Virus record (IMG/VR): IMGVR_UViG_3300009609_000013
Strand: one strand, 5' to 3'
DNA from: a virus
DNA length: 45,557 bases
Shown: positions 6,728 through 42,575 of the stretch, one piece after another
Numbering within the stretch: the first letter of the stretch is position 1
How the letters are laid out: each line of letters begins with the position of its first letter
Notes under the pieces: generated by a model
What the model saw: only the letters and a program-made list of their open reading frames with translations
Told to the model about the DNA's origin: nothing
Databases searched by the model: none
Position numbers and translations under genes: made by a program

Positions 6728-6750
6728 CTTTGGTTAAAGTTTAACCATAG
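6728..6750. promoter_or_regulatory. palindromic motif copy M3 (ctttGGTTAAAGTTTAACCatag)
   Basis: Same 15-bp core as M1 and M12. Intergenic. Confidence 0.8.
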
Positions 6751-6839
6751 GATTTGGTCTAAGTAGAGATTTGCCGTAGCCACGCAGGCAGCTTATGGAA
6801 CCGAGCTGGTTGTGTGGTAGGAATTTTCCCTGCTTTTGT

Positions 6840-6985
6840 GCCGGCCAAGTTTTTCTCCGAAGGAGGTAATCCCAAAGGATTTCGGAGAGAGGGTTCTGTC
6901 AAGGGTGCCTCCAGCGCTAGCGCCTTGACAGGTCCCTCTTGTAGAAATACCCTCACTTACCTCCAGAGGAGAATAACTTGCTGGC
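6840..6985 (+). repeat. structured intergenic element, copy B (antisense to flanking genes)
   Basis: 5' arm gccggccaagtttttctcc pairs with 3' arm ggagaataacttgctggc. Hairpin 6896-6931 is ctgtcaagggtgc...gcgccttgacag. Orientation is set by the asymmetric arm sequences. Confidence 0.7.
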
Positions 6986-6992
6986 ATTTAAA

Positions 6993-7190
6993 TCAACGTG
7001 CTTTATTTTGTTCAAGGAATGCTCTAACATTTGCATCCTTTATTATACTAGCTATTGTTTGCTCGACTTCAATTTGTTCTGCTAATTGCATCTCATGCAT
7101 TTCCTCCAGTGTTAGTGCTTGCTTAGGCTTGCTTTTTATAAGTGTTAGATTACGCTCTCCTTGTTCAGCTTTAAGTGCACGACTGCACAT
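6993..7190 (-). CDS. hypothetical protein
   Basis: 65-aa ORF, co-directional, with AAAGGA upstream. Confidence 0.55.
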   Translation of the reverse strand: MCSRALKAEQGERNLTLIKSKPKQALTLEEMHEMQLAEQIEVEQTIASIIKDANVRAFLEQNKAR

Positions 7191-7234
7191 TTAGGTAGTC
7201 CTTTTCACTTAGATTTGCTGTTTAGTATTGAGCG

Positions 7235-7495
7235 TTACAAATCTATGCTGCGAAGATTTCTTAGTTCTTCACTTAATTTTCTGTCGTCACGATGAATAGC
7301 GCTTGTTGCACTATTTAGTAATGCGTTTTGTTTTAGGTAGTGCACATATACGTGATGAATCTCTTCTAAAAATTCATCTAGAGGAATTGCAGATTCCTTT
7401 TTGAGTATATCTGCTAGAGATCGTAAGTCTCGTGCTAGCCTTGTGCGTACTAATGCACGTAAATCTAATAGGCGTTCGTCACCGCTGCGTTCCAC
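7235..7495 (-). CDS. hypothetical protein
   Basis: 86-aa ORF, GTG start with AGGAGG 8 nt upstream. N-terminus is paralogous to the 7497-7628 product. Confidence 0.65.
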   Translation of the reverse strand: MERSGDERLLDLRALVRTRLARDLRSLADILKKESAIPLDEFLEEIHHVYVHYLKQNALLNSATSAIHRDDRKLSEELRNLRSIDL

Positions 7496-7496
7496 G

Positions 7497-7628
7497 TTAG
7501 CGTACCTCCTGTAAGCAAAATTGCTGTCGAGGATTTGTACGTATACAAAGCGCTAGCTTTGCTTTGGCTAACGTAGTTGGCAATGCACGAAGGTCCAGCA
7601 GCCTTTCGTCATTGCTACGATTATTCAC
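7497..7628 (-). CDS. small protein (43 aa), paralogue of the N-terminus of the 7235-7495 product
   Basis: GTG start with the same CAGGAGGTA SD. NDERLLDLRAL aligns with GDERLLDLRAL, and 6 of the 9 codons encoding ERLLDLRAL differ only synonymously, which argues for coding selection. Confidence 0.5.
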   Translation of the reverse strand: MNNRSNDERLLDLRALPTTLAKAKLALCIRTNPRQQFCLQEVR

Positions 7629-7659
7629 AGCTTATTACCTCCTGAGTAGTATTTTGTAA

Positions 7660-8106
7660 CTAATTTTCTTTTCTGTATTGTTCCAGTAATTGTTGCATCT
7701 TTTGGCTAGATAGAGCCCTTTCTGCTACTTCTCGCATTCTTGATGCATCGGCCTCAGACCAATTAGGCTGTCGACCACGTGGTTTAGGTAGCTCTTCAAA
7801 TTCTTGTGTGTCAGTCTCAGCATCCACGTTCATGTTTTTGAGTGCTGCTGATGCGTACCTATCTGACTCTAGAAATGCTTTGCCATAACTTAGTCTTTTT
7901 AATAGGCGTGTTGCTTCTGCTGTATCTGTTATCCTTTCTACTCCTAGCTTCTCTACGAGAAGTTGCTCAAGAGTTTCTATTGCTAAGCGTGTTAATTGGC
8001 TTATGCTTCTTACGCGATTGTCTCCTTGCTCGAAGAATATAGCTAAGGTTGCCATCTTACATCTATCAACGGTTCCTTGTGCGAGCATATCATTTTTCTT
8101 TGTCAC
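7660..8106 (-). CDS. hypothetical early protein (paralogue of 8106-8375)
   Basis: GTG start with AGGAG upstream. MATLAIFF...RSISQLTRLAIETLE aligns with LANLAVYF...RSMSELTRLIVNTTE in the neighbouring product. Confidence 0.65.
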   Translation of the reverse strand: MTKKNDMLAQGTVDRCKMATLAIFFEQGDNRVRSISQLTRLAIETLEQLLVEKLGVERITDTAEATRLLKRLSYGKAFLESDRYASAALKNMNVDAETDTQEFEELPKPRGRQPNWSEADASRMREVAERALSSQKMQQLLEQYRKEN

Positions 8107-8375
8107 TATAGTTCTCCTATCCAGTTATCGTCCATGCTTGATTTATCACGTATAATTTGTGCTAGAATATGGTCAGCTTCCTCAGTGCTTGTTACTGGCT
8201 CAAATTTTTCCTGTTTTAGTACGGCTTTTTCTGTCGTATTGACTATAAGTCTTGTCAATTCACTCATACTTCGTGGCGTAATTCCTATTGAGTCGAAATA
8301 TACAGCTAAATTCGCTAGGCGAATCTTTTCGACTTGTCCTTGCACTACTATTTTCTTACTTCTAATCCCCAGCAC
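8106..8375 (-). CDS. hypothetical early protein (paralogue of 7660-8106)
   Basis: GTG start with GAGGAG upstream. First gene of the leftward early transcript. Confidence 0.65.
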   Translation of the reverse strand: MLGIRSKKIVVQGQVEKIRLANLAVYFDSIGITPRSMSELTRLIVNTTEKAVLKQEKFEPVTSTEEADHILAQIIRDKSSMDDNWIGEL

Positions 8376-8401
8376 AGGATTCTCCTCATTAAAGTTACGC
8401 A

Positions 8402-8682
8402 GTTATGATGTTATGATGTTCAGCCTATGTCCCCCGGTATGCATTTACTTGCTATTTTTCCTAGAGTGCATTTACTTACTATTATACTATTTCTATTAGT
8501 ACTCTTTTCTCTCTCTCTCTATTATTACTATATATTTTTTATAGTAATAAAAGGAGGAAAAGGAAAGCTAACGCGTAAGTAAAAAAGACTCCTAAATAAG
8601 CCTTCTAAATAAGCCTTCTTAAATGCACTATAAGTAAAATATATCCAGGCCCCCATTGTCTGAACATCATAATGTCATTATA
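8402..8682. repeat. nested palindromic, AT-rich region in the divergent early control region
   Basis: Concentric inverted repeats around ~8540: 8411-8423 ttatgatgttcag with 8660-8672 ctgaacatcataa; 8462-8473 with 8621-8632 (11/12); 8522-8532 ttattactata with 8540-8550 tatagtaataa. The region also holds a (CT)6 run at 8509-8520 and a tandem 13-mer taaataagccttc x2 at 8593-8618. Confidence 0.8.
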
Positions 8683-8705
8683 TCATATGTTTCGTAAGTT
8701 GTCAA
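8677..8705 (-). promoter_or_regulatory. leftward early sigma70 consensus promoter (TTGACA-N17-TGaTATAAT)
   Basis: Minus strand reads gcTTGACAacttacgaaacatatgaTATAATgac. Its transcript would cross the nested palindrome before reaching the 8375 gene. Confidence 0.8.
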
Positions 8706-8799
8706 GCCATTACTCATTCTTTTTATCTATCACTAACACAATCAGTAATAGTCTGTATCAATGAGTGCATCAAAGATGCTATAAGCATGTATTCTTTCC

Positions 8800-8828
8800 T
8801 TGACATTTCAGCAAAACTGTGATATAAT
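8800..8828 (+). promoter_or_regulatory. rightward early sigma70 consensus promoter (TTGACA-N17-TGaTATAAT)
   Basis: ccTTGACAtttcagcaaaactgtgaTATAATtac. Overlapping palindromes gcatcaaagatgc (8767-8779) and atgctataagcat (8776-8788) lie just upstream. Confidence 0.85.
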
Positions 8829-9542: not shown

Positions 9543-9634
9543 GTACAAATATACTCGGGCGCGCTGTAAGTAATGCGCTTAACCTTTTTCAGCCGGCTTA
9601 ATCAGCGGTAACTGTCTAAGTACGTTAGCATATG

Positions 9635-9657
9635 CTGCGGTTAAAATTCAACCAAAG
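9635..9657. promoter_or_regulatory. palindromic motif copy M4 (ctgcGGTTAAAATTCAACCaaag)
   Basis: Variant copy between the convergent genes 9267-9542 and 9718-9984. Confidence 0.65.
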
Positions 9658-9674
9658 CAAAATTTTAGACGCAG

Positions 9675-11304: not shown

Positions 11305-11333
11305 ATTATACCACACTTTAGCCTCAATGTCAA
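11305..11333 (-). promoter_or_regulatory. sigma70 consensus promoter (TTGACA-N17-TGgTATAAT)
   Basis: Minus strand reads gcTTGACAttgaggctaaagtgtggTATAATtac. It fires into the GC-rich island. Confidence 0.8.
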
Positions 11334-11469: not shown

Positions 11470-11498
11470 TTGACATTTGCCCTCAAAACTGATATAAT
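11470..11498 (+). promoter_or_regulatory. sigma70 consensus promoter (TTGACA-N17-TGaTATAAT) heading the plus-strand arm
   Basis: gcTTGACAtttgccctcaaaactgaTATAATttg. Closely resembles the 8800 promoter (shared TTGACATTT and AAAACTG). Confidence 0.85.
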
Positions 11499-17844: not shown

Positions 17845-17867
17845 CTTTGGTTGAATTTTAACCAAAG
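17845..17867. promoter_or_regulatory. palindromic motif copy M5 (ctttGGTTGAATTTTAACCaaag)
   Basis: Intergenic, 90 nt 5' of element C. Confidence 0.75.
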
Positions 17868-17953
17868 CAATGGAGTTGTACTATGATCCCAAAACGCTAC
17901 GCCGCGCAGAATAGCGCGCCACTGATCCTGTTCCAGTACACACTCTTACTCCC

Positions 17954-18113
17954 AGGCCGGTCAAGTTTTTCCCCAAGGGGCGCTCTTAAGGGAATGCGAG
18001 TGGAGCGCTTGTCAAGGGTGGCGACGTAGGAGCCAAGCGAAGCGTCCCTTTACAAGTAAGCGACATGAGTGTTACCTTCTCAAGCCCCTGCAGGGAAATA
18101 ACTTGCTTAGGCT
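17954..18113 (+). repeat. structured intergenic element, copy C
   Basis: 5' arm aggccggtcaagtttttcccc pairs with 3' arm gggaaataacttgcttaggct. Hairpin cttgtcaaggg...ccctttacaag spans 18008-18056. The 57-nt block 18005-18061 is the reverse complement of 4825-4881. Confidence 0.75.
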
Positions 18114-18133
18114 AATTACTGAGGATAAATAAG

Positions 18134-20470: not shown

Positions 20471-20473
20471 CTG

Positions 20474-20496
20474 CTTTGGTTAAACTTTAACCGGAG
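20474..20496. promoter_or_regulatory. palindromic motif copy M6 (ctttGGTTAAACTTTAACCggag)
   Basis: Intergenic, 20 nt 5' of ATG 20513. Confidence 0.8.
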
Positions 20497-20512
20497 CAAT
20501 TGGAGTTACGTT

Positions 20513-22210: not shown

Positions 22211-22214
22211 TTCG

Positions 22215-22237
22215 CTGCGGTTAGAATTTAACCGAAG
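22215..22237. promoter_or_regulatory. palindromic motif copy M7 (ctgcGGTTAGAATTTAACCgaag)
   Basis: Intergenic, 16 nt 5' of GTG 22250. Confidence 0.75.
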
Positions 22238-22249
22238 GAATTTTCTTGT

Positions 22250-27402: not shown

Positions 27403-27405
27403 TTA

Positions 27406-27428
27406 CTTTGGTTAAATTCTAACCGCAG
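27406..27428. promoter_or_regulatory. palindromic motif copy M8 (ctttGGTTAAATTCTAACCgcag)
   Basis: Intergenic, 20 nt 5' of ATG 27445. Confidence 0.8.
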
Positions 27429-27444
27429 CATTGGAGATTAAGCA

Positions 27445-29112: not shown

Positions 29113-29135
29113 GTGTGGTTACATTTTAACCAAAG
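29113..29135. promoter_or_regulatory. palindromic motif copy M9 (gtgtGGTTACATTTTAACCaaag)
   Basis: Intergenic, 65 nt 5' of element D. Confidence 0.7.
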
Positions 29136-29196
29136 CAACAATGTAAAACTGTGGTGCCGAGCAACGCGAGGTCAGTGATTCCCTGTACTTCAGCGC

Positions 29197-29348
29197 GGCC
29201 AGGCATTTTCCCGCAGGTGGACATCCGAGTGAACGAGAGGAAGCAGGTTCTGTCAAGTTGCCGACTGTAAGGAGGCCGAACGTAGTGAGTCTTGACAGGT
29301 TCTGCTGTAAGGAGTAAACTCCCTAGGCCACCGTAGGGAAATGACTGC
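29197..29348 (+). repeat. structured intergenic element, copy D
   Basis: ggccaggcattttccc pairs with gggaaatgactgc. The hairpin is 29250-29298 (ctgtcaag...cttgacag). It shares the 21-nt block cgaacgtagtgagtcttgaca with copy E. Confidence 0.7.
29292..29320 (+). promoter_or_regulatory. sigma70-like promoter embedded in element D (TTGACA-N17-TAAACT)
   Basis: tcTTGACAggttctgctgtaaggagTAAACTccctagg, ~55 nt upstream of GTG 29376. Confidence 0.5.
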
Positions 29349-29375
29349 GAAAGCTGTTTACGGAGGTAATAGAAA

Positions 29376-32300
29376 GTGTCTACAGTTGTACCAATTAGCG
29401 TAAATAAACTCTTTGGGCTTGGTGACGATTTTAATATACTTGACCCAAAGCCAGCGTTTAATCCACTTACTCCTTTGACTACGCCTGCTAAACCCGATCT
29501 TGAAGAAGCATTAAATAATCACTATAATGCAACTAGCGAAACTAAGCTTGTTGGCGATCAGCTTCCTCCACCAGTGTCACAAACTCCTGAAACAATACAA
29601 GCAGGCAGAACTACTCTATCTAAAGCAGGTGATTTACCTATTGCTGCAGCAAAATTAGCAGATACTGGTGTAGGCTACCTAAATCAAGCAATTCGTGGGC
29701 ACACTAAATTCTTGACCGATGTTGGTGAAGGTATGTTTGGAGCTGCAACTGGACTAGTAACTGGTGCAGCTAGTATGGCACTTTCAGCTTCGGACGTACT
29801 AAACACGTATGCCGCACGTACTGCTCGTGAGGGTCCATTTGCAGGCTCGCCATTTGTTGAACCTACACAAGCAACTCAACGAGCATCTATGCCTGATGTC
29901 TTTGCCACACCAGCTGAACAATCTCCTACACATTTCCGCGATATATTCAAGCGTTCAGAAGAAGCAACAAAAGGCTGGAGTTATGAACCTAAATCAGAAA
30001 CTGGAAAGAAGACACTGGAATTGATTAACACTGTTCCACACGCAATTAAAGCAACGTCTGATTTTATTGCTGATCAAGCTACTAAAATTGGCATGGACCC
30101 AGACAAAGCTAGATTGCTCAGCTTTGGAATGGAGCTAGTTTTATTTTACGGCTTAGACAAAGGTGTGCGTGCAGCTGCACCAGAACTGCGTTCGCGAGTA
30201 TCTGATTTACGAACAAAAGTACGCAATGCTCGCACTGATGGAGAATTGCTTTCAGCGCCAGTTTTAGAATCAGCTACACGACTTGCCGAATCTGTGAACC
30301 GTTATCCAGAAGCTGGACCTGCGCTTGATGCAGCACGTGCACGATTAGTAGAAACTCTGCGTCGTCCTATCACGGACTTGACAACTACTTTACGTGAGCC
30401 TGTTACTCAGCTAACTGATACCTTACGAACTCGTGCTGAAGAACCAGTTACAGGATTAGCTGATGTATTACGTCGTAGACAAGAGCAATTAGGAGCAGCT
30501 CCTGGTGACAGCGTGCGAGCGCCAGAAGTAGCAGCTGCTGCACCCCGTGAAGTTGCTCCAGCACCAGCTTTAGGGGACGTATCTGTAGCAGCTGCTGCAC
30601 CTGAACGTATGCAGCCAGCTTCTGATGCTGCTAGTAATTATGGCTTAGGATATAGAGAAGTTACTGCTGATGGACGCGGTTCAGCACGACACTTATATAA
30701 CAACGCTATGTCACCTGAGGCACCTAAATCCGTACAAACTTCCGCACTTGGCGAGCTTAAATCAATAGCACGTGAAGGATTACGTAATAATGAATCTACA
30801 CGTATAGGCCTTGAACGATTAGGATTTTCACCAGAAGAGATTACAGCTGTTGAACCTAGGCTCAGACAGGTACGTGCAACAAAATCAGCAGAATCTGTGC
30901 CTGCTACCTCAGCAAGTACTCAAATACCAGCTGGCGTTGAAACTCCTGTTTCTGCAGTGCGTGGTGAGCTTGATTTTGGAGGAATGTTTAGTGACTTAGC
31001 TGGTGCTATTGGTGGGAGCTTTAAAGATATGCTGTGGGATCAGTACGGAAAAGGCTCCGTCCAAAATACAGCACGCGTTCCTGAGCTTAGTTTGCAGGTA
31101 GCCAAAGCACTTAAAGATGCAGGTATTGACATTCCGCGTTCTCGATTTGATAGTATGATTACTGAGATTGAAAAAATACGAGCTATTGCCAGTGAACAAG
31201 GCTTGCGTGGTGAAGCATTTAGGCAACCTGTTGCAGAATACTATAATAATTTGAAGCGTGAACTTGAAGAAGGTAAACGCATAACTACAGAAGTTGCTAA
31301 GCCTGATGTGCAGCTAACACAAACTCCAGAAGGTGAGCTATCATATGTTAAGCCTACAGGAGAAGTAGTAGCTAAGGCTACTGAATTACCGGCTCAAGTT
31401 GAGCTTGCAAGAGCAGCTCCTGGTGAAACCGTCACTTTGCCTCCTGCTCCGGGTATAGTAGACACAGCTCCGGTATTAGAGAAGCCTAAACGTCAACGTA
31501 AAATTGTGAAAGCTAAAGAAGAATCTCCAGTGACTGCTCAAGATACAGTTGCTGGGATCGCTGCGGATGCAGGAGTAGAATTGGGCCCTACTCCTGCCCG
31601 CAGTAGTGCAGTAAGTTATTATCCAGTACGTTCAATGACTGAATTAGGTGAGCGTTTAGGTAATGCTATTCCTGAGGCTGGCACAATTGCTCCTGAGCGT
31701 GCAGCTATTCAAGTTCGTACTAACACTGTGGGTGCTAAGCCTGATGCACTATTTCTCGACACTACTGGTCTAAATACCTTAACTACACTCGCAGAAATTG
31801 AGAAACAAATTTCACGTGGTCGAATGAGTAGAGAGACTGGCGAGGCAATGATTGCTAATTTACGCCGCCAGGCAGAAATAGGAGATACAACTCTAGCTAA
31901 TGCACATGAGTATAATGGCCAACGATTGCAGCGTGAAGCAACATTAATGGCTGATATGTTAGGCATAGATTTGTACGTAAAGAAAGGTAAGAATTATGAA
32001 CAGGTTCCGCGTGATGTAGTTGCTGCTGATGCTAAGCTTAATCGTGGTGATGTTACTACTCCATCTGGAGTTACTAAGGATGAAGCTGCAGCACTTGCTG
32101 ATTTCAGATCTGCTCCAATAGGACCGGAGCAATTGAAGGAAATTATTGACTCATCAGAGAAAGGTATAGATATAAGCAATAGTTTACCGAGCGAACTTGC
32201 TCCGCATTATCGCACACTACTTGAAGCTGAGCGACAAGGAATTAACTTATCAGAACGCCGTAATTTTATAGACATTTTGAAGGACGTAAATACTTTACTT

Positions 32301-34529
32301 GGTGAATCAGGTGCTATTGGTGGACGTGGACCATTCAACTTTAATCGAGAACGGCGAATGGCAGCTCAGCGACTCGAAGCTGACGCACGCCGTATTGGTT
32401 CAGGCTTTACTGATCTCTTTCGCCGTACACTTCCACCAGAACAGATACCAATGTTTGAGCGCTACTTAGAAGGTATATCTAATCCTGAACCACCAAAGGG
32501 TGTAGGACCGCAGCGAATGTCGCTTGACCCTGATGCTATTGCACGTGGCGATCAAGTAGTTAAGCATAGAGTAAATACTGAAGGTATTCCTCAAGGTCCA
32601 CCACTGTGGGAAAGTGATGTTATTCCTATTTATGATGCAGCTAACCCAGGTCGAAGTACATTTCGTGGACTAGAAGTTCCTATCTATTTAATGGAGCGAA
32701 TGGGACTGAAGGATCCAATTTACTACGCATATCGCACCGCGCAAAACGAGTATAATTTAGCACTCAATGCAATGCGTAAAGACTTGAAGTCAATGACCAA
32801 ATACTTCAGTCCATCATCGCGTGAGAGAATAGGCGCATATGCGTACTCAACAACGCCTGAGGGTATGAGATTACTAGAGCGTGCTAAGACAGAAGTTCCT
32901 ACTCTCAATCCAGCTGAGATGCGTGCGTACAATGAAATGCGCGGTATATATGAGGATTTCTATAACCGCATAAATGAAGTGCGTGAGGCGACCGGTCACG
33001 AACCGCTAATAAAGGTAGACAATTACTTTACTATGGCTCGTAGCTTCTCTGTAATGGAGCGGCTTGGAATAGTGCCAGATATGCTGCGTCATCCTCCAGC
33101 TGACATCAATGCTCAATTCACGAATCACTCAATTACACCGTTCCCGCATGCACGCTTACGAAGCGGCAGTACATACGCAGCTGAATTTGATGCCTTTCGT
33201 TTGATGGACCGATATGCAAGCTCATCATTGAAGCAAATACATATTGCTCCATTTATCTCGAAGCTCAATGAACTAATCGAAACTAAACTGCCTGATCCTA
33301 CTCAAACTAGCAAGCCTTGGGCTGAGCGTGATGTAAACTGGTCCCTAAAAGAGCAGAACGCAAATGCTTATAATGTACTGCATAGTTGGAAGGAATATCT
33401 TGCAACTGGCACAAATCAGTACAAGTTGCCACAGAAGGTTGAGAACTTCATTACAGTAGTTGGTAATAATCTAGCATATTCACTGCTGTCTGCTAACTTG
33501 CGTTCAGCCGGTGTGCAAATTAGTACGATGCGTAATACCTTCCAATCATTAGGATACATTCCAACAGTAGAGGGTGTTACTCGTTCTATAGGTGATATTG
33601 CAGCTGGTGGTGAACGCTGGAAGCGAGCACTCGATAAATCAGAAATTTTATCAGGACGGCGTTATCAAGATGCATTTTCTGGTATGGAATTTAGCTTAAC
33701 TGGATTTCGGCCACGGGAACTAGTAGGTGCAATTACTAGAGGACGATTCACTGAAATACAAGGTGCAGCCGCAGGTGCTGGTATGAAGTTCTTAGAAGTA
33801 ATGGATATGGTAAGTGCTAATGTGAGCTGGAATGCAGCGTACGATCATGCAACGAAAGCGTTGCGTAAAACTGATCGTGAGGCAATTAGAATTGCTGATG
33901 ACTTAGTGGTTAAGACCCAAGGTTCTACTATGCCTGGGGACTTAGCTGGCATTCAGCGTAGTGTAGCAGGTAAAGCTCTCACTCAATTCCAAACGTTCCT
34001 AATTAGCGATTGGAACTTTCTGCAACGTGAAGTGCTGGGATTAAAGGATCCTAAAATGACTTGGGGTGATACTGCTATGAATGCGGCAAGGTTTGTAGGT
34101 ACGACCGCAGCATTCAATGTTCTCTTTGAGAATGTACTTAACGTGCAGTCTCCATTTCCAACGTTTGTTAAAGATGCTAAATCTGCAATAGCGGATAATG
34201 ACAGCGATCCTTTGAAGATAGCATGGCGCTTAGCATCCGGCATACTTGAACCAATTCCAGTTATTGGTGCTTCTAGATACGGCAAAAGTATTGCAGGTCC
34301 TGCAGTAGAAGTAGGGCGCGATTTTACTCGTGGATTAGCTGGTTCTCCGCTGGCACCAAGTCCTTATGAATCACTAGCTAAAATGGCAGGTATTCCAGGC
34401 ACGCAGCAAATAGCTAAAACTTTACGTGCCAGGAACCGCGGAGAAGGTTGGTATAATTCTATCACTGGCTGGTATAGTGAAGATACAGGCACTAGGCGAG
34501 AAAGAGGTGGAAGACGTGCTAGAGATTAA
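29376..34529 (+). CDS. very large virion protein (1717 aa; internal core/ejection-protein candidate)
   Basis: GTG start with GGAGG upstream. It is the last large gene of the structural arm. An Ala/Arg/Pro-rich low-complexity segment holds three EPVTxLxDxLR-like repeats (~30350-30480). I could find no polymerase or lysozyme motif. Confidence 0.75.
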   Translation: MSTVVPISVNKLFGLGDDFNILDPKPAFNPLTPLTTPAKPDLEEALNNHYNATSETKLVGDQLPPPVSQTPETIQAGRTTLSKAGDLPIAAAKLADTGVGYLNQAIRGHTKFLTDVGEGMFGAATGLVTGAASMALSASDVLNTYAARTAREGPFAGSPFVEPTQATQRASMPDVFATPAEQSPTHFRDIFKRSEEATKGWSYEPKSETGKKTLELINTVPHAIKATSDFIADQATKIGMDPDKARLLSFGMELVLFYGLDKGVRAAAPELRSRVSDLRTKVRNARTDGELLSAPVLESATRLAESVNRYPEAGPALDAARARLVETLRRPITDLTTTLREPVTQLTDTLRTRAEEPVTGLADVLRRRQEQLGAAPGDSVRAPEVAAAAPREVAPAPALGDVSVAAAAPERMQPASDAASNYGLGYREVTADGRGSARHLYNNAMSPEAPKSVQTSALGELKSIAREGLRNNESTRIGLERLGFSPEEITAVEPRLRQVRATKSAESVPATSASTQIPAGVETPVSAVRGELDFGGMFSDLAGAIGGSFKDMLWDQYGKGSVQNTARVPELSLQVAKALKDAGIDIPRSRFDSMITEIEKIRAIASEQGLRGEAFRQPVAEYYNNLKRELEEGKRITTEVAKPDVQLTQTPEGELSYVKPTGEVVAKATELPAQVELARAAPGETVTLPPAPGIVDTAPVLEKPKRQRKIVKAKEESPVTAQDTVAGIAADAGVELGPTPARSSAVSYYPVRSMTELGERLGNAIPEAGTIAPERAAIQVRTNTVGAKPDALFLDTTGLNTLTTLAEIEKQISRGRMSRETGEAMIANLRRQAEIGDTTLANAHEYNGQRLQREATLMADMLGIDLYVKKGKNYEQVPRDVVAADAKLNRGDVTTPSGVTKDEAAALADFRSAPIGPEQLKEIIDSSEKGIDISNSLPSELAPHYRTLLEAERQGINLSERRNFIDILKDVNTLLGESGAIGGRGPFNFNRERRMAAQRLEADARRIGSGFTDLFRRTLPPEQIPMFERYLEGISNPEPPKGVGPQRMSLDPDAIARGDQVVKHRVNTEGIPQGPPLWESDVIPIYDAANPGRSTFRGLEVPIYLMERMGLKDPIYYAYRTAQNEYNLALNAMRKDLKSMTKYFSPSSRERIGAYAYSTTPEGMRLLERAKTEVPTLNPAEMRAYNEMRGIYEDFYNRINEVREATGHEPLIKVDNYFTMARSFSVMERLGIVPDMLRHPPADINAQFTNHSITPFPHARLRSGSTYAAEFDAFRLMDRYASSSLKQIHIAPFISKLNELIETKLPDPTQTSKPWAERDVNWSLKEQNANAYNVLHSWKEYLATGTNQYKLPQKVENFITVVGNNLAYSLLSANLRSAGVQISTMRNTFQSLGYIPTVEGVTRSIGDIAAGGERWKRALDKSEILSGRRYQDAFSGMEFSLTGFRPRELVGAITRGRFTEIQGAAAGAGMKFLEVMDMVSANVSWNAAYDHATKALRKTDREAIRIADDLVVKTQGSTMPGDLAGIQRSVAGKALTQFQTFLISDWNFLQREVLGLKDPKMTWGDTAMNAARFVGTTAAFNVLFENVLNVQSPFPTFVKDAKSAIADNDSDPLKIAWRLASGILEPIPVIGASRYGKSIAGPAVEVGRDFTRGLAGSPLAPSPYESLAKMAGIPGTQQIAKTLRARNRGEGWYNSITGWYSEDTGTRRERGGRRARD

Positions 34530-34530
34530 T

Positions 34531-35094
34531 TTGCTTTGGATAGATTTTAACCACAGCAATATAATTCACTTGTTTGTCATTCTCTTTTTACTTAGTTCTT
34601 GCTCGCACCAAAAAGATAAGTTTACTCTAATTGAGGGTGAAATTATACTAACAATTCCTTACTCTACGGCATCAGTGTCTACAAGTGGAAATATAAAAGC
34701 TGGCACAATTACTCCAGAAGAGTTTCAGAAGCAATATGGTACTTTAATTGCCACGACTCCCGAAGCAGGGACGCTGTTCACACTATATTTTATTACTGGT
34801 ACTACAACGCTTACACCAGAGAGCTTACATGAGATACCTTTAATAAAAGCTGAAATTGAACGACGTAAATTTGTTGAGATTGAGATAACCGGACATGCAG
34901 ACCAGACTGGCGATTATGCTAATAATGATCAGCTTTCATTATCTCGTGCTGAACTGGCACGAAGTACTATTGAGAATGATGGAATATACGTAGATTTTGT
35001 ACGTGTTATAGGACGCGGCTCACGTGCACCGCTTATTGATTCTCCAGGAAAAGATGAGCCTAAAAACAGACGCGTTGAAATTCTAGTACGTTAG
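34531..35094 (+). CDS. OmpA/Pal-like peptidoglycan-binding lipoprotein
   Basis: Lipobox LFLLSSC followed by an OmpA_C pattern: EIEITGHADQTGDYANNDQLSLSRAELARSTI...GRGSRAPL...NRRVEILV. The start is uncertain (TTG 34531, GTG 34507 or TTG 34570). The listed ATG 34426 overlaps the upstream gene by 104 nt. Confidence 0.75.
   Translation: MLWIDFNHSNIIHLFVILFLLSSCSHQKDKFTLIEGEIILTIPYSTASVSTSGNIKAGTITPEEFQKQYGTLIATTPEAGTLFTLYFITGTTTLTPESLHEIPLIKAEIERRKFVEIEITGHADQTGDYANNDQLSLSRAELARSTIENDGIYVDFVRVIGRGSRAPLIDSPGKDEPKNRRVEILVR
34534..34556. promoter_or_regulatory. palindromic motif copy M10 (ctttGGATAGATTTTAACCacag)
   Basis: Degenerate left half. Lies between the 1717-aa gene and the lipoprotein signal peptide. 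Confidence 0.65.
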
Positions 35095-36583: not shown

Positions 36584-39500
36584 TTATATTCCTAAAGTTA
36601 AAATTGCATCTTGTAGATATGCTTCCAATACATACGGATCATTACTAAATTTGTCTCCTTTCAATTCAATACCTAAATGCTTGTTTAGGCATAAGTTAAC
36701 TACTAAATCAACTGGCACCACAAATTCCACGTTACGATACCGTAACGGAGCTTCCAGAGAAGCTTTAATACTTAATAGAATTCGTGCGTGATCTGCAAGT
36801 GGTAAGCTCAACGGTATTTGAATACTAACCGAATCGTGTACTTGAGTAAGTAACTCAACGTGCTTGAATAGTGGATCTGAATTATAGTAGATGAAATTTA
36901 GTCCCTGTTCATTTACTAAATCTCCGCACGTACCTTGAGGGATACAACTATAAGCCTCATTGAGCAGCTTGTCATCATACTTTCCTAAAAACGTAATTTT
37001 CCTGCCATACAAGTTAGTGAGTGTGCGTGTAGACTTGATTGTATCTTCTACATATTTCCAGTATCCACCTTTAAGTCCTGGATAAGCTGCGTGATATCTA
37101 TCGTAAATAAATTTAGCTTGTCGTTCAGGTATTTCATACTTGAGGCTAAATGACTTGTATCCAAAACCGTAATTAAAACCGTGATTTGCTCTCTTCGACC
37201 AATCCCTCTGTGAATGAGTGCCATTACCCAAGCTAGATGATCCATGCTCATTACTAACTTCGTCATATGGCACTCCAAATATAAGTGCCCCAGTCATACG
37301 ATGTATATCTAAGTTGTTTTCGTACACTTCTTTCATTTGCGTGATATTACCAACGTACGCAACAATACGTGCTTCAATCTGCGACATATCAAGTGAATAA
37401 ATAACGTATCCTGCATCTGCTACGTAGTAGCTAAGCACATCATGAGGTATATTCTGCAAGTTAGTGTTTCCTGTGACGCATATTCTATCCTCGTATCGAG
37501 TAAGAAAAAATGAAGTCTCAGTTTCTATACAGTAAACAGGTCCATCGTAATTGATCAAACTAAAATAATCCTCCTGTTGTTTTGCTAATACTCTAGGCTT
37601 TATATTAACAGTGTATAATCCTTTAGCTGAGAATTCTCCGTACGATTCCAGAGCTCTATTTTCACCCCAATTTATTGTTGCTGATTTGCCGCACAAGTGC
37701 GCAAGTGTAGCTACCCATTCGGCATTCTGTTTTACTGCAGTAAAATACCAAAAGCTCGTTCCTCTTCTATGTGCATCCCAGTGTGAAATTTCGTCCAATA
37801 AAGAACTTAGACTTTGCTGGTCAAATCTAAGCAACCACGAATCAAAGAGTTTGCTTCTGCCACTCCTATTAAGTAATTCTATGAACTCCTTACACTCACT
37901 TACAGGCAAGTAAAATCTTCTGTACCCATTATATGCAGTACGATGTTCGTTGTATTGAATCCCGAATATTTCCATAAGTACTAAGAAACGTGCTATCTTT
38001 TCCTTTTTCTTAAATTGAAAGGTTATAGAATTTCCTTCTATACTGCCGTCAGCTTGTATTACTGCCAATAGACGTATTGCAGGCCAGCTTATTTTTCCAC
38101 TTTTATACTCCCCTCCTATAGGCAGCATCCACTCACCAGTAAATACGGCTTCGTATGCAGGCTTAACTATAAATTTATTACGGTGTGAGACTGTAGGTAT
38201 TCTATGATCTAGCGTATAACAGTTTCTGTGTAACGTTGAGTTAGCACGTATCATCTTACCGCTATTTTTTGTTACGTGTATTTTTGGTACACACCATGAT
38301 AGCGACCAATCAGTATCCCATTGAAGTACTTCTGTATCTTCTTTTAATTCATCTAGTCTAATCCATCCACTTTTTGTGAATACCTCAGCTCTAGGAAGTA
38401 AACAACCAGTTCCGAATATATTTGCACTGCTTGATATTCTACTAAATCGTGTACCTACTGGATTATATGAGCATCTCATACGACCGTCATCATCTACGTT
38501 CTCGACGTTGAGAAATGTTGATGCCTTCTTTTGCAGCCGGCGAACCTCAAGTATTAAACTTGCTTCTTTAAATCCCTTGTTAGCTATACGTGTTAATGCT
38601 TCCTCATCTACAGTAGGCTTGCCAATCTTACTCAAGTATGGAGCTAACCCACGATTCGTATAAAAATACTCGCATACTTGCTGCGGTGAAGCCAAGTTAA
38701 ACGCATTAGTGTTCATTATACTATATGCCTGTTGCGTTAATTCATCAGCTTCCAATCGAGCATTTCTTGCAGCCCTATCCATACCCTCACGATCTATTCT
38801 GATTCCACGCTCCATCATATAGCTTAATGGTCCAACTAATTTTATTTGACGCTCGTATGCATCGTAATTACCACGCTCTTCCAATTCAGCTAGCTGCTTA
38901 GGAAATGCATCCGCACATGCGATACTATCAAGACAGTTGTAGGCCCAGCCCTTGCTATATTCACCTACACCAGTTAGCCACAACTTGCCGTCACGTTTAT
39001 AGTAAGGAATGTCCGTCCACATTGCAGTGATAAATTCCAGTGTTTTGCCTCGGTACGTTTTGCCACCAAAATCTGGATAGAGAATATGCTGAGCTATCAT
39101 CGTATCAGCTTTGATATTACGCGTACGAATTCCATACTTGCGTAGCAGAAAGTGTGAATCGAATACTATATTCTGCCCGCCTTTTATATAACTATCATTG
39201 CCAAGAAGATTTTCGATGCTTAACATCAGCTCATATTCTTGTTCAGCGCTAAAATAATCACCATTTGCATCCACGAATGGAATGCACAGCACATCAATTT
39301 CGTTAGTTGCAAAGCTAATACAGCTTAGCTCTTGTGTCTTAGGTGTTAATTCAATGTCGTAATATATTATACCTCCATTCTCAGCTACTTGTTTGCACTC
39401 TTCTAACCAGCTTATACATTCGTAGTAGCTAGGTTGAGTACGCAATTTGCGATCAGTTAATCTAATATCAGGAAATTCAGATTCTGTACGAATCTTCTTA

Positions 39501-40018
39501 AAGTCTAGTGTAATGAGATACTTCGCAAGATACGCTGCTGGATTCGCGAGCACTTTTTCATCAGTGTATATAGCAGGATGTAGCGTAGGGATGACTTTCC
39601 TTCCCGGCAGGAGAGTTGATTCAAGTATACTACCACGCCATGCAGTAATTCCAACTCGACCCGTAAGAGCAAATAATGAAGTGTTTCCCATAGCAACAAT
39701 AACATTAGCTTTAGTTTTGTTGAGTTCGTCGCGCAGCACCTCTAAATACCGCTGACCAAGTACGCTTATATTCGCACGTCCATTCACACCGGACTTAATA
39801 TCTAAGTAATGTTTGAGTTCGAATTCAACGTCCTTAATTACATTAGTTAGATAACAGCTGCCTCGTGAAATCCTAGCATTCATGAGACACTCATTGAGGT
39901 TTCTACCAGCTGGTCCCATGAAGGGTTTACCATAGCGTACTTCATACTTTGCCGGCTGCTCGCCAACAAGTGCTATTTTGCTACTCAACAGTCCGTCTGG
40001 TCCGACTAGCTGCGGCAT
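36584..40018 (-). CDS. polA: family-A DNA polymerase with N-terminal UDG-superfamily domain, interrupted by an intein
   Basis: UDG-like motifs: LVGEQPAKYE, GKPFMGPAG, TLHPAIY. Exonuclease motif: IYYDIELT. Polymerase motifs: SLDMSQIEARI, TNLQNIP, LTQVHDSV. 1144 aa, of which 313 aa are intein. Confidence 0.9.
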   Translation of the reverse strand: MPQLVGPDGLLSSKIALVGEQPAKYEVRYGKPFMGPAGRNLNECLMNARISRGSCYLTNVIKDVEFELKHYLDIKSGVNGRANISVLGQRYLEVLRDELNKTKANVIVAMGNTSLFALTGRVGITAWRGSILESTLLPGRKVIPTLHPAIYTDEKVLANPAAYLAKYLITLDFKKIRTESEFPDIRLTDRKLRTQPSYYECISWLEECKQVAENGGIIYYDIELTPKTQELSCISFATNEIDVLCIPFVDANGDYFSAEQEYELMLSIENLLGNDSYIKGGQNIVFDSHFLLRKYGIRTRNIKADTMIAQHILYPDFGGKTYRGKTLEFITAMWTDIPYYKRDGKLWLTGVGEYSKGWAYNCLDSIACADAFPKQLAELEERGNYDAYERQIKLVGPLSYMMERGIRIDREGMDRAARNARLEADELTQQAYSIMNTNAFNLASPQQVCEYFYTNRGLAPYLSKIGKPTVDEEALTRIANKGFKEASLILEVRRLQKKASTFLNVENVDDDGRMRCSYNPVGTRFSRISSSANIFGTGCLLPRAEVFTKSGWIRLDELKEDTEVLQWDTDWSLSWCVPKIHVTKNSGKMIRANSTLHRNCYTLDHRIPTVSHRNKFIVKPAYEAVFTGEWMLPIGGEYKSGKISWPAIRLLAVIQADGSIEGNSITFQFKKKEKIARFLVLMEIFGIQYNEHRTAYNGYRRFYLPVSECKEFIELLNRSGRSKLFDSWLLRFDQQSLSSLLDEISHWDAHRRGTSFWYFTAVKQNAEWVATLAHLCGKSATINWGENRALESYGEFSAKGLYTVNIKPRVLAKQQEDYFSLINYDGPVYCIETETSFFLTRYEDRICVTGNTNLQNIPHDVLSYYVADAGYVIYSLDMSQIEARIVAYVGNITQMKEVYENNLDIHRMTGALIFGVPYDEVSNEHGSSSLGNGTHSQRDWSKRANHGFNYGFGYKSFSLKYEIPERQAKFIYDRYHAAYPGLKGGYWKYVEDTIKSTRTLTNLYGRKITFLGKYDDKLLNEAYSCIPQGTCGDLVNEQGLNFIYYNSDPLFKHVELLTQVHDSVSIQIPLSLPLADHARILLSIKASLEAPLRYRNVEFVVPVDLVVNLCLNKHLGIELKGDKFSNDPYVLEAYLQDAILTLGI
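37466..38404 (-). mobile_element. intein (313 aa) with LAGLIDADG homing-endonuclease domain in the polymerase gene
   Basis: Starts at Cys in FGTG/CLLPRAEV. Block B is TLDH. The endonuclease motifs are LLAVIQADGSI and LLDEISHWDAH. It ends ...VYCIETETSFFL...ICVTGN/TNLQNIP, which places it immediately N-terminal of the conserved (P)NLQNIP motif. The penultimate residue is Gly rather than the usual His. Confidence 0.8.
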
Positions 40019-40020
40019 AA

Positions 40021-41603: not shown

Positions 41604-41833
41604 TACAGTAGATTCTCCTGGCGCTTAGCCATTAATGTGTAATAGAGATCAGCTAATTGCTTTTCACTAAGATTAGCTATTGCGGATTCGGCAGTAATCT
41701 CTTTACGTTTCTCACGGGTAGGCTTAGGTTCTACTAATCTACGACGTAGGCGCATTTCGAGGACCAGTTTCATTCCTTCTTCAGGAGGTAAGTTAGATAA
41801 GCTGATTATTTTTAAGTCATCTAATGAAGCCAT
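41603..41833 (-). CDS. hypothetical protein
   Basis: 76-aa ORF with GAGGATAA upstream and a TAATG overlap with the downstream gene. Confidence 0.6.
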   Translation of the reverse strand: MASLDDLKIISLSNLPPEEGMKLVLEMRLRRRLVEPKPTREKRKEITAESAIANLSEKQLADLYYTLMAKRQENLL

Positions 41834-41857
41834 TTATCCTCGCAATCCTATTTCCTT

Positions 41858-41994
41858 GCAGAGCCTAGGGATTATGATGCTGCACTGCGCTGCTTGTCAA
41901 GACTCACTACGTTCGACCCCTACGGGGCAACTTGACAACCTGCTCGTTTGCTGGAAGCAAGAGTAGGCTCTGCCGGAAAAAGTCTTGTCGGCTC
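41858..41994 (-). repeat. structured intergenic element, copy E
   Basis: Closing helix gcagagcct (41965-41973 on the minus strand) pairs with aggctctgc (41858-41866). Hairpin is 41893-41938. The 5' arm gagccgacaagactttttccgg lies at 41973-41994. Confidence 0.7.
41871..41900 (-). promoter_or_regulatory. sigma70-like promoter embedded in element E (TTGACA-N18-CATAAT)
   Basis: Minus strand reads tcTTGACAagcagcgcagtgcagcatCATAATccctagg, ~35 nt upstream of ATG 41833. Confidence 0.5.
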
Positions 41995-42082
41995 GGGAAG
42001 TGGGAGTCTGTACTTGGACCGTATCACCTTCCCTCGCAAGCTCGGGCCATTACGCTTTGGGATTATAGCACGCATGAATCTC

Positions 42083-42105
42083 CTTTGGTTAAAATCTAAC
42101 CAGAG
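42083..42105. promoter_or_regulatory. palindromic motif copy M11 (ctttGGTTAAAATCTAACCagag)
   Basis: Intergenic, 92 nt 5' of element E in the minus sense. Confidence 0.75.
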
Positions 42106-42110
42106 CACTT

Positions 42111-42338
42111 TCATTCCACTCTCCTCATGTAGTCTTGAACTGTACGCTTGTAACTCACCTCGCGGCTAAGCATTGCGAGCACAAAGTATTGGCCAAACTC
42201 ATCGAGCATAACTATTGCATCATCCACTATTACACTGAAGACTTGCTTAAGCTGGCCATGCTCCAGGTGCTGCTTGAGCTTGTTATATTGCTGATCAGTT
42301 ACCTCAAATGTTATCCTGTGTGTATAAGGCTTATTCAT
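42111..42338 (-). CDS. hypothetical protein (possible ribbon-helix-helix N-terminus)
   Basis: 75 aa, with RITFEVTDQQYNKLKQ. AGGAG upstream. Confidence 0.55.
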   Translation of the reverse strand: MNKPYTHRITFEVTDQQYNKLKQHLEHGQLKQVFSVIVDDAIVMLDEFGQYFVLAMLSREVSYKRTVQDYMRRVE

Positions 42339-42353
42339 AGCATGCTCTCACTC

Positions 42354-42376
42354 CTGTGGTTAAAGTTTAACCGCAG
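42354..42376. promoter_or_regulatory. palindromic motif copy M12 (ctgtGGTTAAAGTTTAACCgcag)
   Basis: Same 15-bp core as M1 and M3. Intergenic. Confidence 0.8.
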
Positions 42377-42434
42377 CAGGTTGTGGCACTGATGCAGCTC
42401 GCACCGTGCTGCCCTTATAAGACCGATGCTGTTG

Positions 42435-42575
42435 GGCCGGGTCTTGCCTTAAAGGCATTTTCCCCCTGGTGACCAACATCTTTTCACGAAAGGTCACGCT
42501 GTCAAGGGTTTAAGCGAAGCGTCCCTTGACAGCACTAGTGACCTGTAGTGATATAATTAAGTCACCAGGAGGAAT
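42435..42575 (+). repeat. structured intergenic element, copy F (antisense to flanking genes)
   Basis: ggccgggtc...cattttccccctggtgac pairs with gtcaccaggagg. The perfect 11-bp-stem hairpin 42498-42533 (gctgtcaaggg/cccttgacagc) has a loop carrying aagcgaagcg, as in A and C. Confidence 0.7.
42526..42557 (+). promoter_or_regulatory. extended -10 promoter (TGaTATAAT) on the plus strand, antisense to the arm
   Basis: TTGACA lies at 42526-42531, 20 nt from TATAAT (42552-42557), which is preceded by TGa. AGGAGG and ATG 42576 follow. Confidence 0.55.

Follow-up and report, generated by a model that had tools for sequence, protein, structure and literature searches.

The window analysed here, a stretch of 45,557 nucleotides, is the genome of a podovirus (about 45.4 kb, circularly assembled) in which a unit of about 300 bases, composed of a palindrome and a conserved long hairpin following it, occurs in six copies. 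These units look like a new form of the promoter/stem-loop cassette of T4-type phages, and judging from their sequences we give an even chance to the view that they are regulatory promoter cassettes of the PeSL (promoter-early stem-loop) kind, which are shuffled by recombination and contain a selected hairpin. Such cassettes have so far been described mainly in T4-type myoviruses. The form present in this small uncultured podovirus clade is more elaborate: a predicted host-type promoter is situated within a conserved and covarying 160-nt hairpin, its -35 element being paired and its -10 element open, and a palindrome that occurs at gene junctions throughout the clade is always located ahead of it.

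The repeats of the window comprise 12-13 copies of the palindrome GGTTAAAnTTTAACC and six long hairpins of about 160 nt each, designated rods A to F, all of which are located between ORFs. The six loci are marked exactly by the pattern TGTCAAG-N8-38-CTTKACA, for which 0.04 occurrences are expected in the window, and nhmmer and a covariance model recovered the identical six rods:

4765-4935, minus strand: rod A; -35 TTTACA at 4832-4837, -10 TAAGCT at 4807-4812, predicted start near 4800, followed by the SD and ATG of a 77-aa gene (4757 down to 4524)
6837-6995, plus strand: rod B; -35 at 6925-6930, -10 TACCCT at 6948-6953, predicted start near 6960; antisense to the local genes, with the promoter pointing at the minus-strand early genes 6993-8375
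17953-18120, plus strand: rod C; -35 TTTACA at 18049-18054, -10 TACCTT at 18073-18078, predicted start near 18085; upstream of a 262-aa gene (GTG 18134), which precedes the capsid gene
29191-29362, plus strand: rod D; -35 at 29292-29297, -10 TAAACT at 29315-29320, predicted start near 29327; upstream of a 1717-aa gene (GTG 29376)
41828-41995, minus strand: rod E; -35 at 41895-41900, -10 CATAAT at 41871-41876, predicted start near 41864; upstream of a 76-aa gene (ATG 41833) at the head of a ParB-methylase / DNA polymerase operon
42443-42587, plus strand: rod F; -35 at 42526-42531, 20-nt spacer, extended -10 TGaTATAAT (hexamer 42552-42557), predicted start near 42564; antisense to the local genes, with the promoter pointing into the 3' end of a 184-aa gene

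For comparison, relatives were included, among them G1, G2, G3, L035, L078, and L166, and counts given for 21 distinct rods or for 22 units refer to the window plus these relatives; where rods of different origin are compared, those of the window are named wA to wF. The rod family is confined to one phage subclade.

A search of the window for GGTTAAANTTTAACC with up to three mismatches yielded 13 matches, compared to 2.4 ± 1.5 in shuffled sequences, none of which reached 13. Twelve of the matches are intergenic, and the one at 12068, with three mismatches, is doubtful. The others are the following:

5307-5321: M2, the original 5' palindrome of unit A, now forming a palindrome-SD-ATG arrangement for an inserted 111-aa ORF
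6732-6746 (extended 6725-6753): M3, forming the 5' end of unit B; a 71-aa gene read from the minus strand has its SD and ATG (6724) immediately after it
17849-17863: M5, 5' end of unit C
29117-29131: M9, 5' end of unit D
42087-42101: M11, 5' end of unit E
42358-42372: M12, forming the 5' end of unit F; a 75-aa gene read from the minus strand has its SD and ATG (42338) immediately after it
20478-20492, 22219-22233, and 27410-27424: palindromes without rod, on the plus strand between a stop codon and the next SD/ATG
1328-1342, 9639-9653, and 34538-34552: palindromes without rod and with no obvious SD and ATG immediately downstream

The palindrome is a generic intercistronic element of the clade, which also stands alone at most gene junctions, but in the units its position relative to the rod is strictly polar. 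The distance from its centre to the first rod base is 98 nt for B, 97 nt for C, 67 nt for D, 98 nt for E, and 68 nt for F, in agreement with the first-pass annotation, which had placed it 62-93 nt 5' of the element in five of six cases (B-F) by a slightly different measure. When the relatives are included, it lies 55-98 nt off the 5' side in 22 of 22 units, A being an apparent exception, and in neither the window nor the relatives does a rod turn its 3' side to the palindrome. Given 13 palindromes within 45 kb, we estimate the chance of finding one within a window of about 45 nt on the right side as about 0.013 per rod, and that of five correctly placed rods out of six as about 1e-9. In unit A, the nearest palindrome (M2) is indeed, as noticed earlier, parted from the rod by the ORF 4961-5296 (111 aa), and the spacer (approximately 4936-5000) overlaps the 3' end of this ORF. 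Since palindrome, spacer, and A-type rod are adjacent in L078, following the same upstream gene as in the window, the ORF represents an insertion in unit A. The plus orientation of B and F between minus-strand genes was likewise borne out, their strand being unambiguous (109 bits on the plus vs 27 on the minus strand for B, and 74 vs 24 for F), and the description of palindrome, spacer, and rod as a polar composite unit that occurs in both orientations and strictly in intergenic regions holds.

On its 3' arm, each rod very probably carries a promoter of the sigma-70 type that is present in one direction only. The sequence elements suggesting this are TTGACA, a spacer of 17-21 nt, TAnnnT, a discriminator rich in C and T, and, in the region of the predicted start, a conserved TAG. 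Among the 21 distinct rods the -35 hexamer is nearly invariant, and within the -10 hexamer A-11 and T-7 are invariant in all 21, with variation at the remaining positions; at least four of six -10 matches are present on the forward strand of 14 rods and on the reverse strand of none. Rods with long spacers have a TGn before the -10, copies with a 20-nt spacer carry TGnTATAAT, and the promoter of rod E, with 11 of 12 consensus positions, was found independently by a promoter scan. The phage genome also contains five promoters with a 12/12 consensus, all of them without rods, and clearly uses the TTGACA/-10 grammar. Several rods have weak -10 hexamers (TAAGCT, TACCCT, TAGGCT), the 19-21-nt spacers of some are suboptimal, and an AT-rich UP region is absent, the GC-rich apical hairpin directly preceding the -35. 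An autonomous transcription unit, which had been named as an alternative to a mobile cassette, gains support insofar as every rod has its own conserved candidate promoter. Sixteen of the 21 rods are located directly upstream of a gene, and the other five, B and F among them, run counter to local transcription. In 16 of 21, an SD and a start codon follow 30-48 nt past the predicted start, so that the 3' arm would be the predicted 5' leader of that gene; the earlier exclusion of a cis-acting leader was therefore too strong.

All rods share one fold, with energies of -55 to -88 kcal/mol and folding z-scores of -3.9 for C and -8.5 for B. The base is formed by helices P0 and P1 (TTTTYCC/GGRRAAA), a purine-rich 3x3 loop, and the fully covarying P2; above it follow a loop of about 10x10 nt, P3, P4 (TGTCAAG/CTTGACA), and a variable tip. 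The -35 lies in the perfect duplex of P4 near the tip, and the -10 is located in the conserved 10x10 internal loop, which is kept open by pyrimidine-pyrimidine oppositions. Changes on both sides occur in 40 of the 50 pairs, and the number of double-change cells, 174, contrasts with 69 ± 6.5 in shuffles (none of 500 reached it) and with 41-62 when the partners were slid. G-U accounts for only about 6% of the pairs. Among the 16 co-oriented rods, 14 have a sense strand that folds better than its complement; in antisense rods both strands fold about equally well, which a sequence-independent dsRNA function would allow. P0, P1, and P2 together provide about 25 pairs with the 3x3 loop, and thus the near-continuous duplex of about 20 bp looked for in RNase III substrates.

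Based on these modelled folds, we tentatively suggest, with somewhat less than even confidence, that the hairpin acts at the RNA level, in processing or insulation. The rods would then serve as internal promoters (middle/late or booster) in long operons that are begun by the five rodless consensus promoters. RNA reading through from upstream would fold into the rod, whose base helix of about 25 bp and internal loop, resembling the RNase III sites of phage T7, could cause the upstream mRNA to be processed or uncoupled, and transcripts from the embedded promoter, which lack the 5' arm, would stay open. B, F, and the other inverted copies might function as antisense promoters against early or upstream transcription. 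If this applies, the unit is a compact promoter-plus-processing module that defines operon architecture. The RNase III sites of T7, likewise a podovirus, are intercistronic, comprise about 60 nt with two helices and an internal loop, and are often accompanied by promoters; rods are similar in the helix-loop-helix layout and in the pairing with a promoter, whereas the T7 sites do not hold a promoter themselves. Two features are left unexplained by a role at the RNA level: the placement of the -10 always in an unpaired loop and of the -35 in a perfect duplex, and an enrichment of C-GNA-G on the forward strand that is not accompanied by one of C-GNRA-G. The small share of G-U pairs also speaks against this interpretation.

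Other functions of the transcribed hairpin can be envisaged. In the T4 genes e, 49, soc, and I-TevI, a late promoter lies inside a hairpin that masks the RBS (reviewed in PMC3014915), and a similar gating of translation in the rods, with the in-hairpin promoter yielding shorter, translatable transcripts, appears very unlikely to us. Both systems have a hairpin-embedded promoter and read-through and promoter-proximal transcripts that fold differently, since transcripts starting inside the rod cannot form the hairpin; moreover, the 3' strand of P1 is SD-like (GGGAAA, GGAGAA, GGAGGAA), rod F pairs AGGAGG directly, and the SD might find a pairing partner in the motif CTTCC/CTCCC, which lies 5' of the rod. 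However, the conserved helices do not include the true SD and AUG, the rods are about five times longer and members of a repeated family, and their promoter is of the sigma-70 type. The pattern expected of an RBS-masking hairpin, SD and AUG paired in long and free in short transcripts, is absent: the predicted unpaired probability from SD to AUG is about equal in both, with small differences in either direction and no consistent trend over 16 units, and masking is not detectable. Highly improbable, too, is an independent gene for a structured RNA that is transcribed starting from the palindrome side and, in the manner of 6S RNA, might imitate an open promoter and titrate the host polymerase. 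It would fit the size and layout of the rods (closing stem, central bubble, apical stem) and the presence of TATGAT or TGcTATAAT 18-19 nt after the half-site TTAACC in the long spacers of C, E, and G1a, but most units have no upstream promoter, the sequence-specific conservation of A-11 and T-7 fits recognition of DNA, and there are at least six copies per genome, each before a gene. A search of the whole window against Rfam 15, which includes 6S RNA, gave no match at E values up to 1, and with the rods alone nothing relevant was obtained at E values up to 10.

Alternatively, the hairpin might function as DNA. Comparable hairpin promoters are the minus-strand origin of M13 and the early promoters of phage N4, which are served by the phage's own polymerase and have hairpins of 5-7 bp. 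The motif C-GNA-G, a signature of unusually stable DNA mini-hairpins that also forms the N4 promoter loops, occurs 53 times on the forward strand of the rods (18 ± 4 expected), including the exact GCGAAGC, and 11 times on the reverse strand; C-GNRA-G is not enriched on the forward strand. With DNA parameters, the forward strand is more stable in 14 of 16 co-oriented rods. These data would suit a pre-melted hairpin promoter on single-stranded or supercoil-extruded DNA, which we consider unlikely: the forward strand would fold, the host holoenzyme would bind the duplex -35 and the open -10, and, with the 5' arm as template, transcription would proceed towards the palindrome and provide a primer or short RNA or, in inverted units, the mRNA of the gene starting just beyond the palindrome. 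The duplex -35, the -10 in a loop held open by pyrimidine-pyrimidine oppositions, and the downstream duplex correspond to open-complex geometry, and the strictly polar palindrome would be explained; in wB, wF, G3c, and G2a, a gene of the appropriate sense begins, with its SD and ATG, immediately beyond the palindrome. A precedent is Frpo/ssi, the single-stranded DNA promoters of conjugative plasmids (PMC11541004; Masai and Arai 1997, as cited therein). As in Frpo/ssi, M13, and N4, a long imperfect hairpin with stable GNA-type mini-hairpins rebuilds a duplex -35 (P4) and a mismatched -10 (internal loop); in contrast to these systems, the genome is double-stranded, and in 16 of 21 rods the served gene is on the wrong side or strand for single-strand templating, the folded strand being its template only in the inverted wB, wF, G3c, and G2a. 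The same 16 of 21 rods would yield RNA antisense to the upstream gene, and the downstream gene could not be expressed, as the surrogate arm of the opposite strand contains no -10 (0 of 21). Extrusion of a cruciform would be costly, as about 26% of the helix cells are unpaired, the z-score of C is a modest -2.2 with DNA parameters, and we know of no single-stranded stage for a tailed dsDNA phage.

That the rods are, more specifically, open-promoter-mimic DNA hairpins for the host sigma-70 polymerase of a dsDNA podovirus, with a duplex -35 and a pre-melted -10, is rather improbable. Polymerase would be recruited when the forward strand is single-stranded, as lagging-strand template, or extruded, and would transcribe towards the palindrome. 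If true, this would mean priming or a second, oppositely directed transcription programme coupled to replication or supercoiling, and it would account for the C-GNA-G mini-hairpins, the bubble at the -10, the polar position of the palindrome, and the conservation of the inverted B and F. An Frpo- or N4-like hairpin promoter used by a host polymerase would then be known for the first time from a tailed dsDNA phage. A cruciform-controlled promoter is found in the exsBA intergenic region of Vibrio, at a single chromosomal locus with the dedicated regulator HlyU (PMC10325908). There too, an inverted repeat overlaps the promoter region and control depends on DNA structure, whereas the rods form a repeated family, their palindromes are imperfect, and no protein is known to bind them.

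The units have probably spread by recombination and not by transposition. Sites A-E keep their positions in genomes whose nucleotide identity has fallen to about 70-78%, and the antisense rod B is matched in site and orientation by G3c. Site F is empty in G3 (61-nt gap), G2 is without rod there, and G1 has none either. Two G3 units occupy junctions at which the window and both G1 and G2 are compact, and at site E, L166 lacks the rod but has the palindrome together with an HNH ORF. An ORF has been inserted at the edge of the palindrome both there and, with the 111-aa ORF, in unit A. The lower arms of the rods cluster by genomic site, whereas the tips cluster within a genome (wA and wC 100% identical, the apex of rod A at 4825-4881 being that of rod C; G3c and G3f 92%) or across non-orthologous sites of different contigs (G1a and L035a 98%; wD and L078a 96%).

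Of the mobile cassette proposed in the first-pass annotation, presence/absence polymorphism was recovered, but a transposon-like mechanism was not. A MITE-like non-autonomous element with a transposase supplied in trans, to which we assign a very slender chance, would account for the two orientations, the restriction to intergenic regions, the missing coding capacity, and the presence/absence pattern. An imperfect direct repeat of 7-8 nt flanks G3e, relative to the empty G2 junction, and only this unit; a consistent target-site duplication was not found, sites F and E being without any. The supposed inverted terminal arms vary in sequence from copy to copy, with covariation, and are helices rather than conserved transposase-binding repeats. 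No transposase gene was seen in the window, and the limitation of the family to one subclade, the similarity of only 51-66% between rod copies, and the largely orthologous sites, antisense B included, speak against such an element.

According to the cassette interpretation, units would be gained, lost, and patched when copies recombine homologously or convert one another, a mechanism also proposed for the PeSLs of T4-type phages, in which cassettes of a sigma-70 promoter and a stem-loop recombine (Arbiol et al. 2010, PMC2839356; Comeau et al. 2014, PMC4122927). Both are repeated intergenic composites of stem-loop and sigma-70-type promoter that mark the borders of gene insertions, deletions, and replacements with no dedicated recombinase known, and the exchange of tips, the ORF insertions, and the presence or absence of whole units agree with copies that recombine and flank gene indels. 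The rod family offers a natural system for gene conversion and modular exchange of phage regulatory DNA, and it allows precise, testable predictions of transcription starts. In PeSLs the promoter lies beside a short G/C stem-loop, whereas here the palindrome hairpin is placed 5' and the rod of about 160 nt surrounds the promoter, without an AT-rich UP region and with the GC-rich tip abutting the -35. A T-run follows neither palindrome nor rod, except weakly at M11, so that a PeSL-like terminator role of the palindrome, which also stands alone, is not evident. The phage, moreover, is a small podovirus, and some rod copies are conserved in antisense orientation.

The unit formed by the palindrome, a spacer, and the rod, a conserved hairpin of about 160 nt, is best described on sequence grounds as a putative sigma-70 promoter cassette inside a selected long hairpin, headed by the intercistronic palindrome of the clade, kept in place at important operon junctions and shuffled through recombination. 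Each of the two repeat families is genuine and greatly exceeds chance expectation, with 13 palindrome matches in the window (2.4 expected) and six loci of the hairpin TGTCAAG...CTTKACA (0.04 expected). Six rods of approximately 145-172 nt with unambiguous polarity were located there by nhmmer and a covariance model, namely A(-), B(+), C(+), D(+), E(-), and F(+). The palindrome centre lies 67-98 nt on the 5' side of rods B, C, D, E, and F, a 5' palindrome also precedes every rod of the relatives (two in G1, one in G2, eight in G3, and more in L004, L035, L078, L135, L138, and L164), and no rod with its 3' side facing a palindrome was found in the window or the relatives. This polar pairing confirms the proposal of the first-pass annotation that the two elements form a composite unit placed in both orientations. 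The exception, copy A, is explained by comparison with L078, where the palindrome, the spacer, and an A-type rod with lower arms 84-90% identical to those of A come after the same MazG-like gene: the window has a 111-aa ORF (4961-5296, minus strand) inserted between the palindrome copy M2 and the spacer, which the 3' end of the ORF overlaps. This ORF is without homologue in G1-G3 and looks like a moron-type insertion at the palindrome border.

The full palindrome of about 33 bp reads AATTGCTTTGGTTAAAnTTTAACCAAAGCAATT and has no T-run. At several junctions its left flank gives the stop codon (TAA) of the upstream gene, and GGAG comes after its right flank, with a start about 15 nt on, at roughly half of the junctions (20478, 27410, 5307, 6732, 42087, 42358). 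The palindrome could be an RNA hairpin or a site for a dimeric DNA-binding protein, e.g., the HTH proteins of the phage, which include ParB-like proteins of 246 and 449 aa and a GerE-type protein of 179 aa. Copies outside units are located as follows:
1321-1357, palindrome
9631-9667, palindrome
20462-20515, palindrome
22211-22248, palindrome
27394-27447, palindrome
34525-34567, palindrome

The spacer between palindrome and rod contains the conserved motif GAGCAACGCGAR and variants of it and ends with CTTCC or CTCCC. In C, E, and the G1 rod G1a, whose spacers are long (98 nt), TATGAT or TGcTATAAT and then CCC occur 18-19 nt past the palindrome half-site TTAACC, which could constitute a second promoter, one whose transcript would span the entire rod:
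window 17870-17895, TATGAT/TGcTATAAT spacer motif
window 42040-42075 (minus strand), TATGAT/TGcTATAAT spacer motif
G1 about 4310-4330, TATGAT/TGcTATAAT spacer motif
A sigma-54 promoter was rejected, as the TGGCAC-like strings of the spacer do not keep the GG-N10-GC spacing. A coding role of the units was rejected as well, as neither the small ORFs that begin beyond the palindrome in C and E nor the ORFs on the reverse strand that end in it keep their length or sequence.

All 21 distinct rods of the window and its relatives share one folded architecture, composed from base to tip of helix P0 (GGCC...), P1 (TTTTYCC/GGRRAAA), a 3x3 purine-rich loop, P2, an internal loop of about 10x10, P3, P4 (TGTCAAG/CTTGACA), and a variable tip. 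P2 comprises 6-10 bp and is wholly different among copies (GGGCAAT, GGAGGTAA, GGGGC, AGAGCCTA, CTGGTGAC). Since indels made the MAFFT/RNAalifold consensus of the raw alignment poor, projection from individual folds and covariance-model realignment were used instead. Both-side changes occur in 40 of 50 pairs of the model-guided alignment, which is fitted to the structure; differences in P2 can nonetheless be seen in the raw sequences. The both-side-change cells number 174, versus 69 +/- 6.5 in shuffles (0/500 as high) and 41-62 with slid partners. The folding energy is far below that of shuffled sequences (z = -3.9 for C and -8.5 for B). The better-folding strand is the sense strand in 14 of 16 co-oriented rods, and the two strands of the four inverted rods do not differ; this pattern fits a function of one strand, as RNA or as DNA, rather than a symmetric cruciform. 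Among the matches listed for an IMG/VR pattern scan with nhmmer filter, rods are confined to the subclade of this phage; no rod was detected by the covariance model either in relatives whose polymerases are 43-55% identical or in Desulfofustis phage OP947158, and a metagenome scan gave three usable loci. Rfam had no match to the whole window or to the rods alone.

The 3' arm of the rod holds a predicted sigma-70-type promoter consisting of TTGACA, 17-21 nt, and TAnnnT. The -35 is nearly invariant in the 21 rods; within the -10, the pair of bases flipped out by sigma-70 (positions two and six) never changes, while the remaining positions vary. Rods with a 20-nt promoter spacer carry the extended -10 TGnTATAAT; the -10 is followed by a discriminator rich in C and T and by a conserved TAG, and in 16 rods a Shine-Dalgarno sequence and start codon lie 30-48 nt beyond the predicted start. 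The arrangement is found on the reverse complement in 0/21 rods, and a reverse-strand promoter by which inverted rods would serve local genes was rejected on this basis. Five perfect (12/12) TTGACA-17-TGnTATAAT promoters are present in the window, 0/5 in rods, each with TG ahead of the -10:
4476-4504, minus strand, consensus promoter
8677-8705, minus strand, consensus promoter
8800-8828, plus strand, consensus promoter
11305-11333, minus strand, consensus promoter
11470-11498, plus strand, consensus promoter
They include two back-to-back divergent pairs (about 8.7-8.8 kb and 11.3-11.5 kb) and are probably early promoters; their perfect match indicates that the host sigma-70 grammar applies. 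The rods look like a second, presumably weaker promoter class within operons, and B and F are putative antisense promoters, conserved or lineage-specific.

The interesting part of the family is the purpose of the hairpin. A role at the RNA level would most likely account for it: the hairpin may process or insulate read-through transcripts, and the base helix of about 25 bp with its internal loop resembles T7 RNase III sites. The main rival is a hairpin-DNA promoter acting on single-stranded or extruded DNA, and two findings favour it. C-GNA-G is strongly enriched, about threefold, on the forward strand of the rods only (53 versus 18 +/- 4 expected; reverse strand, 11), including exact GCGAAGC at 4846-4852, 18034-18040, and 42514-42520 of the window, and d(GCGAAGC) is an unusually stable DNA mini-hairpin; C-GNRA-G (GNRA-type) loops are not enriched. 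In the predicted fold, P4, a perfect duplex, contains the -35, and a large internal loop contains the -10, so that -35 duplex, -10 bubble, and downstream duplex have an open-complex layout like that of Frpo (PMC11541004). Such a promoter, however, would run toward the palindrome, antisense to the upstream gene in 16/21 units, and the opposite strand is unable to supply a -10. For these two reasons the plain double-stranded promoter is kept as the predicted main function of the rods. Two further candidates were considered. Masking of the ribosome-binding site on read-through RNA, as for T4 gene e and I-TevI (PMC3014915), was rejected, the predicted SD-AUG accessibility showing no consistent difference between long and promoter-proximal transcripts. 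An N4-type virion RNA polymerase was unsupported, the 1717-aa protein having no Pfam or PDB match.

Sites shared between genomes were read from synteny mapping:
site A, after the MazG-like gene, common to different genomes
site B, rod B and the G3 rod G3c, same position and same antisense orientation
site C, ahead of a scaffold-like gene, common to different genomes
site D, ahead of the giant gene, common to different genomes
site E, ahead of the replication operon, common to different genomes
The P2 helices of B and G3c are entirely different with complementarity kept. Presence/absence polymorphism among relatives, a check proposed for a mobile cassette, was found: a rod is missing from site F in G3 (61-nt gap) and in G2, and G1 has a different GC-rich element there; the G3 rods G3e and G3f occupy junctions that the window, G1, and G2 have in compact form; and site E holds palindrome and HNH ORF in L166 and palindrome, spacer, and rod in L164. 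The reading as a non-autonomous transposon (MITE) was nevertheless not supported, as the compared junctions show no consistent target-site duplication. Variable segments start directly after the palindrome and stop at the next start codon. Lower arms cluster by site, and tips cluster either inside one genome or between sites that are not orthologous: A matches C at all 57 nt, G3c and G3f (same genome) share 92%, and on different contigs and at different sites G1a and L035a share 98% and D and L078a 96%. This mosaicism indicates probable gene conversion between copies, and the pattern of spread matches recombination-driven cassettes such as the promoter/stem-loop cassettes (PeSLs) of T4-type phages (PMC2839356, PMC4122927), not transposition. 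Other GC-rich, strongly folding intergenic elements fill sites E and F in relatives, which suggests that several structured-cassette families compete for the same slots:
G1 (L022/L037; IMGVR_UViG_3300017791_000168) about 30830-31000, non-rod folding element
G1 about 31310-31545, non-rod folding element
L164 2560-2700, non-rod folding element
L166 2760-2990, non-rod folding element

The window represents a podovirus-like phage in a circularly permuted assembly of about 45,434 bp (45435-45557 duplicates bases 1-123), with a minus-strand arm from about 8.4 kb via the junction to 35.1 kb and a plus-strand arm at about 8.9-35.1 kb. For head and packaging it encodes a terminase, an SU10-type portal, a major head protein, and a P22 gp7-like ejection protein, and for replication a family A DNA polymerase, a ParB-methylase, a DUF3987 protein, and a PD-(D/E)XK nuclease; a scan found no tRNA or tmRNA. 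No close deposited phage was found, the nearest portal matches having 20-38% identity (best, 38%); several IMG/VR relatives with about 70-78% nucleotide identity were assembled as G1, G2, G3, and fragments. The polymerase (36584-40018, minus strand) has an N-terminal UDG-superfamily domain and contains about 940 bp (37463-38405) without counterpart in G1, G2, and G3, over which alignments skip; a weak LAGLIDADG_3 match (aa 648-703) coincides with this segment, probably an intein or homing-endonuclease insertion. An HNH endonuclease gene (89-649, minus strand) is not in G1 and G2, and the HNH-like ORF of L166 is a different one, inserted immediately after the palindrome; free-standing endonuclease genes tend toward palindrome borders. 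A 543-aa gene (25771-27402), whose product is a probable ejection or tail protein, contains five copies of a 33-nt-periodic coding repeat (26662-26969). The inter-arm region is flanked, beside divergent consensus promoters, by a 42-nt imperfect inverted repeat (8405-8446/8637-8678, 71% complementary) and may be a regulatory or origin region.
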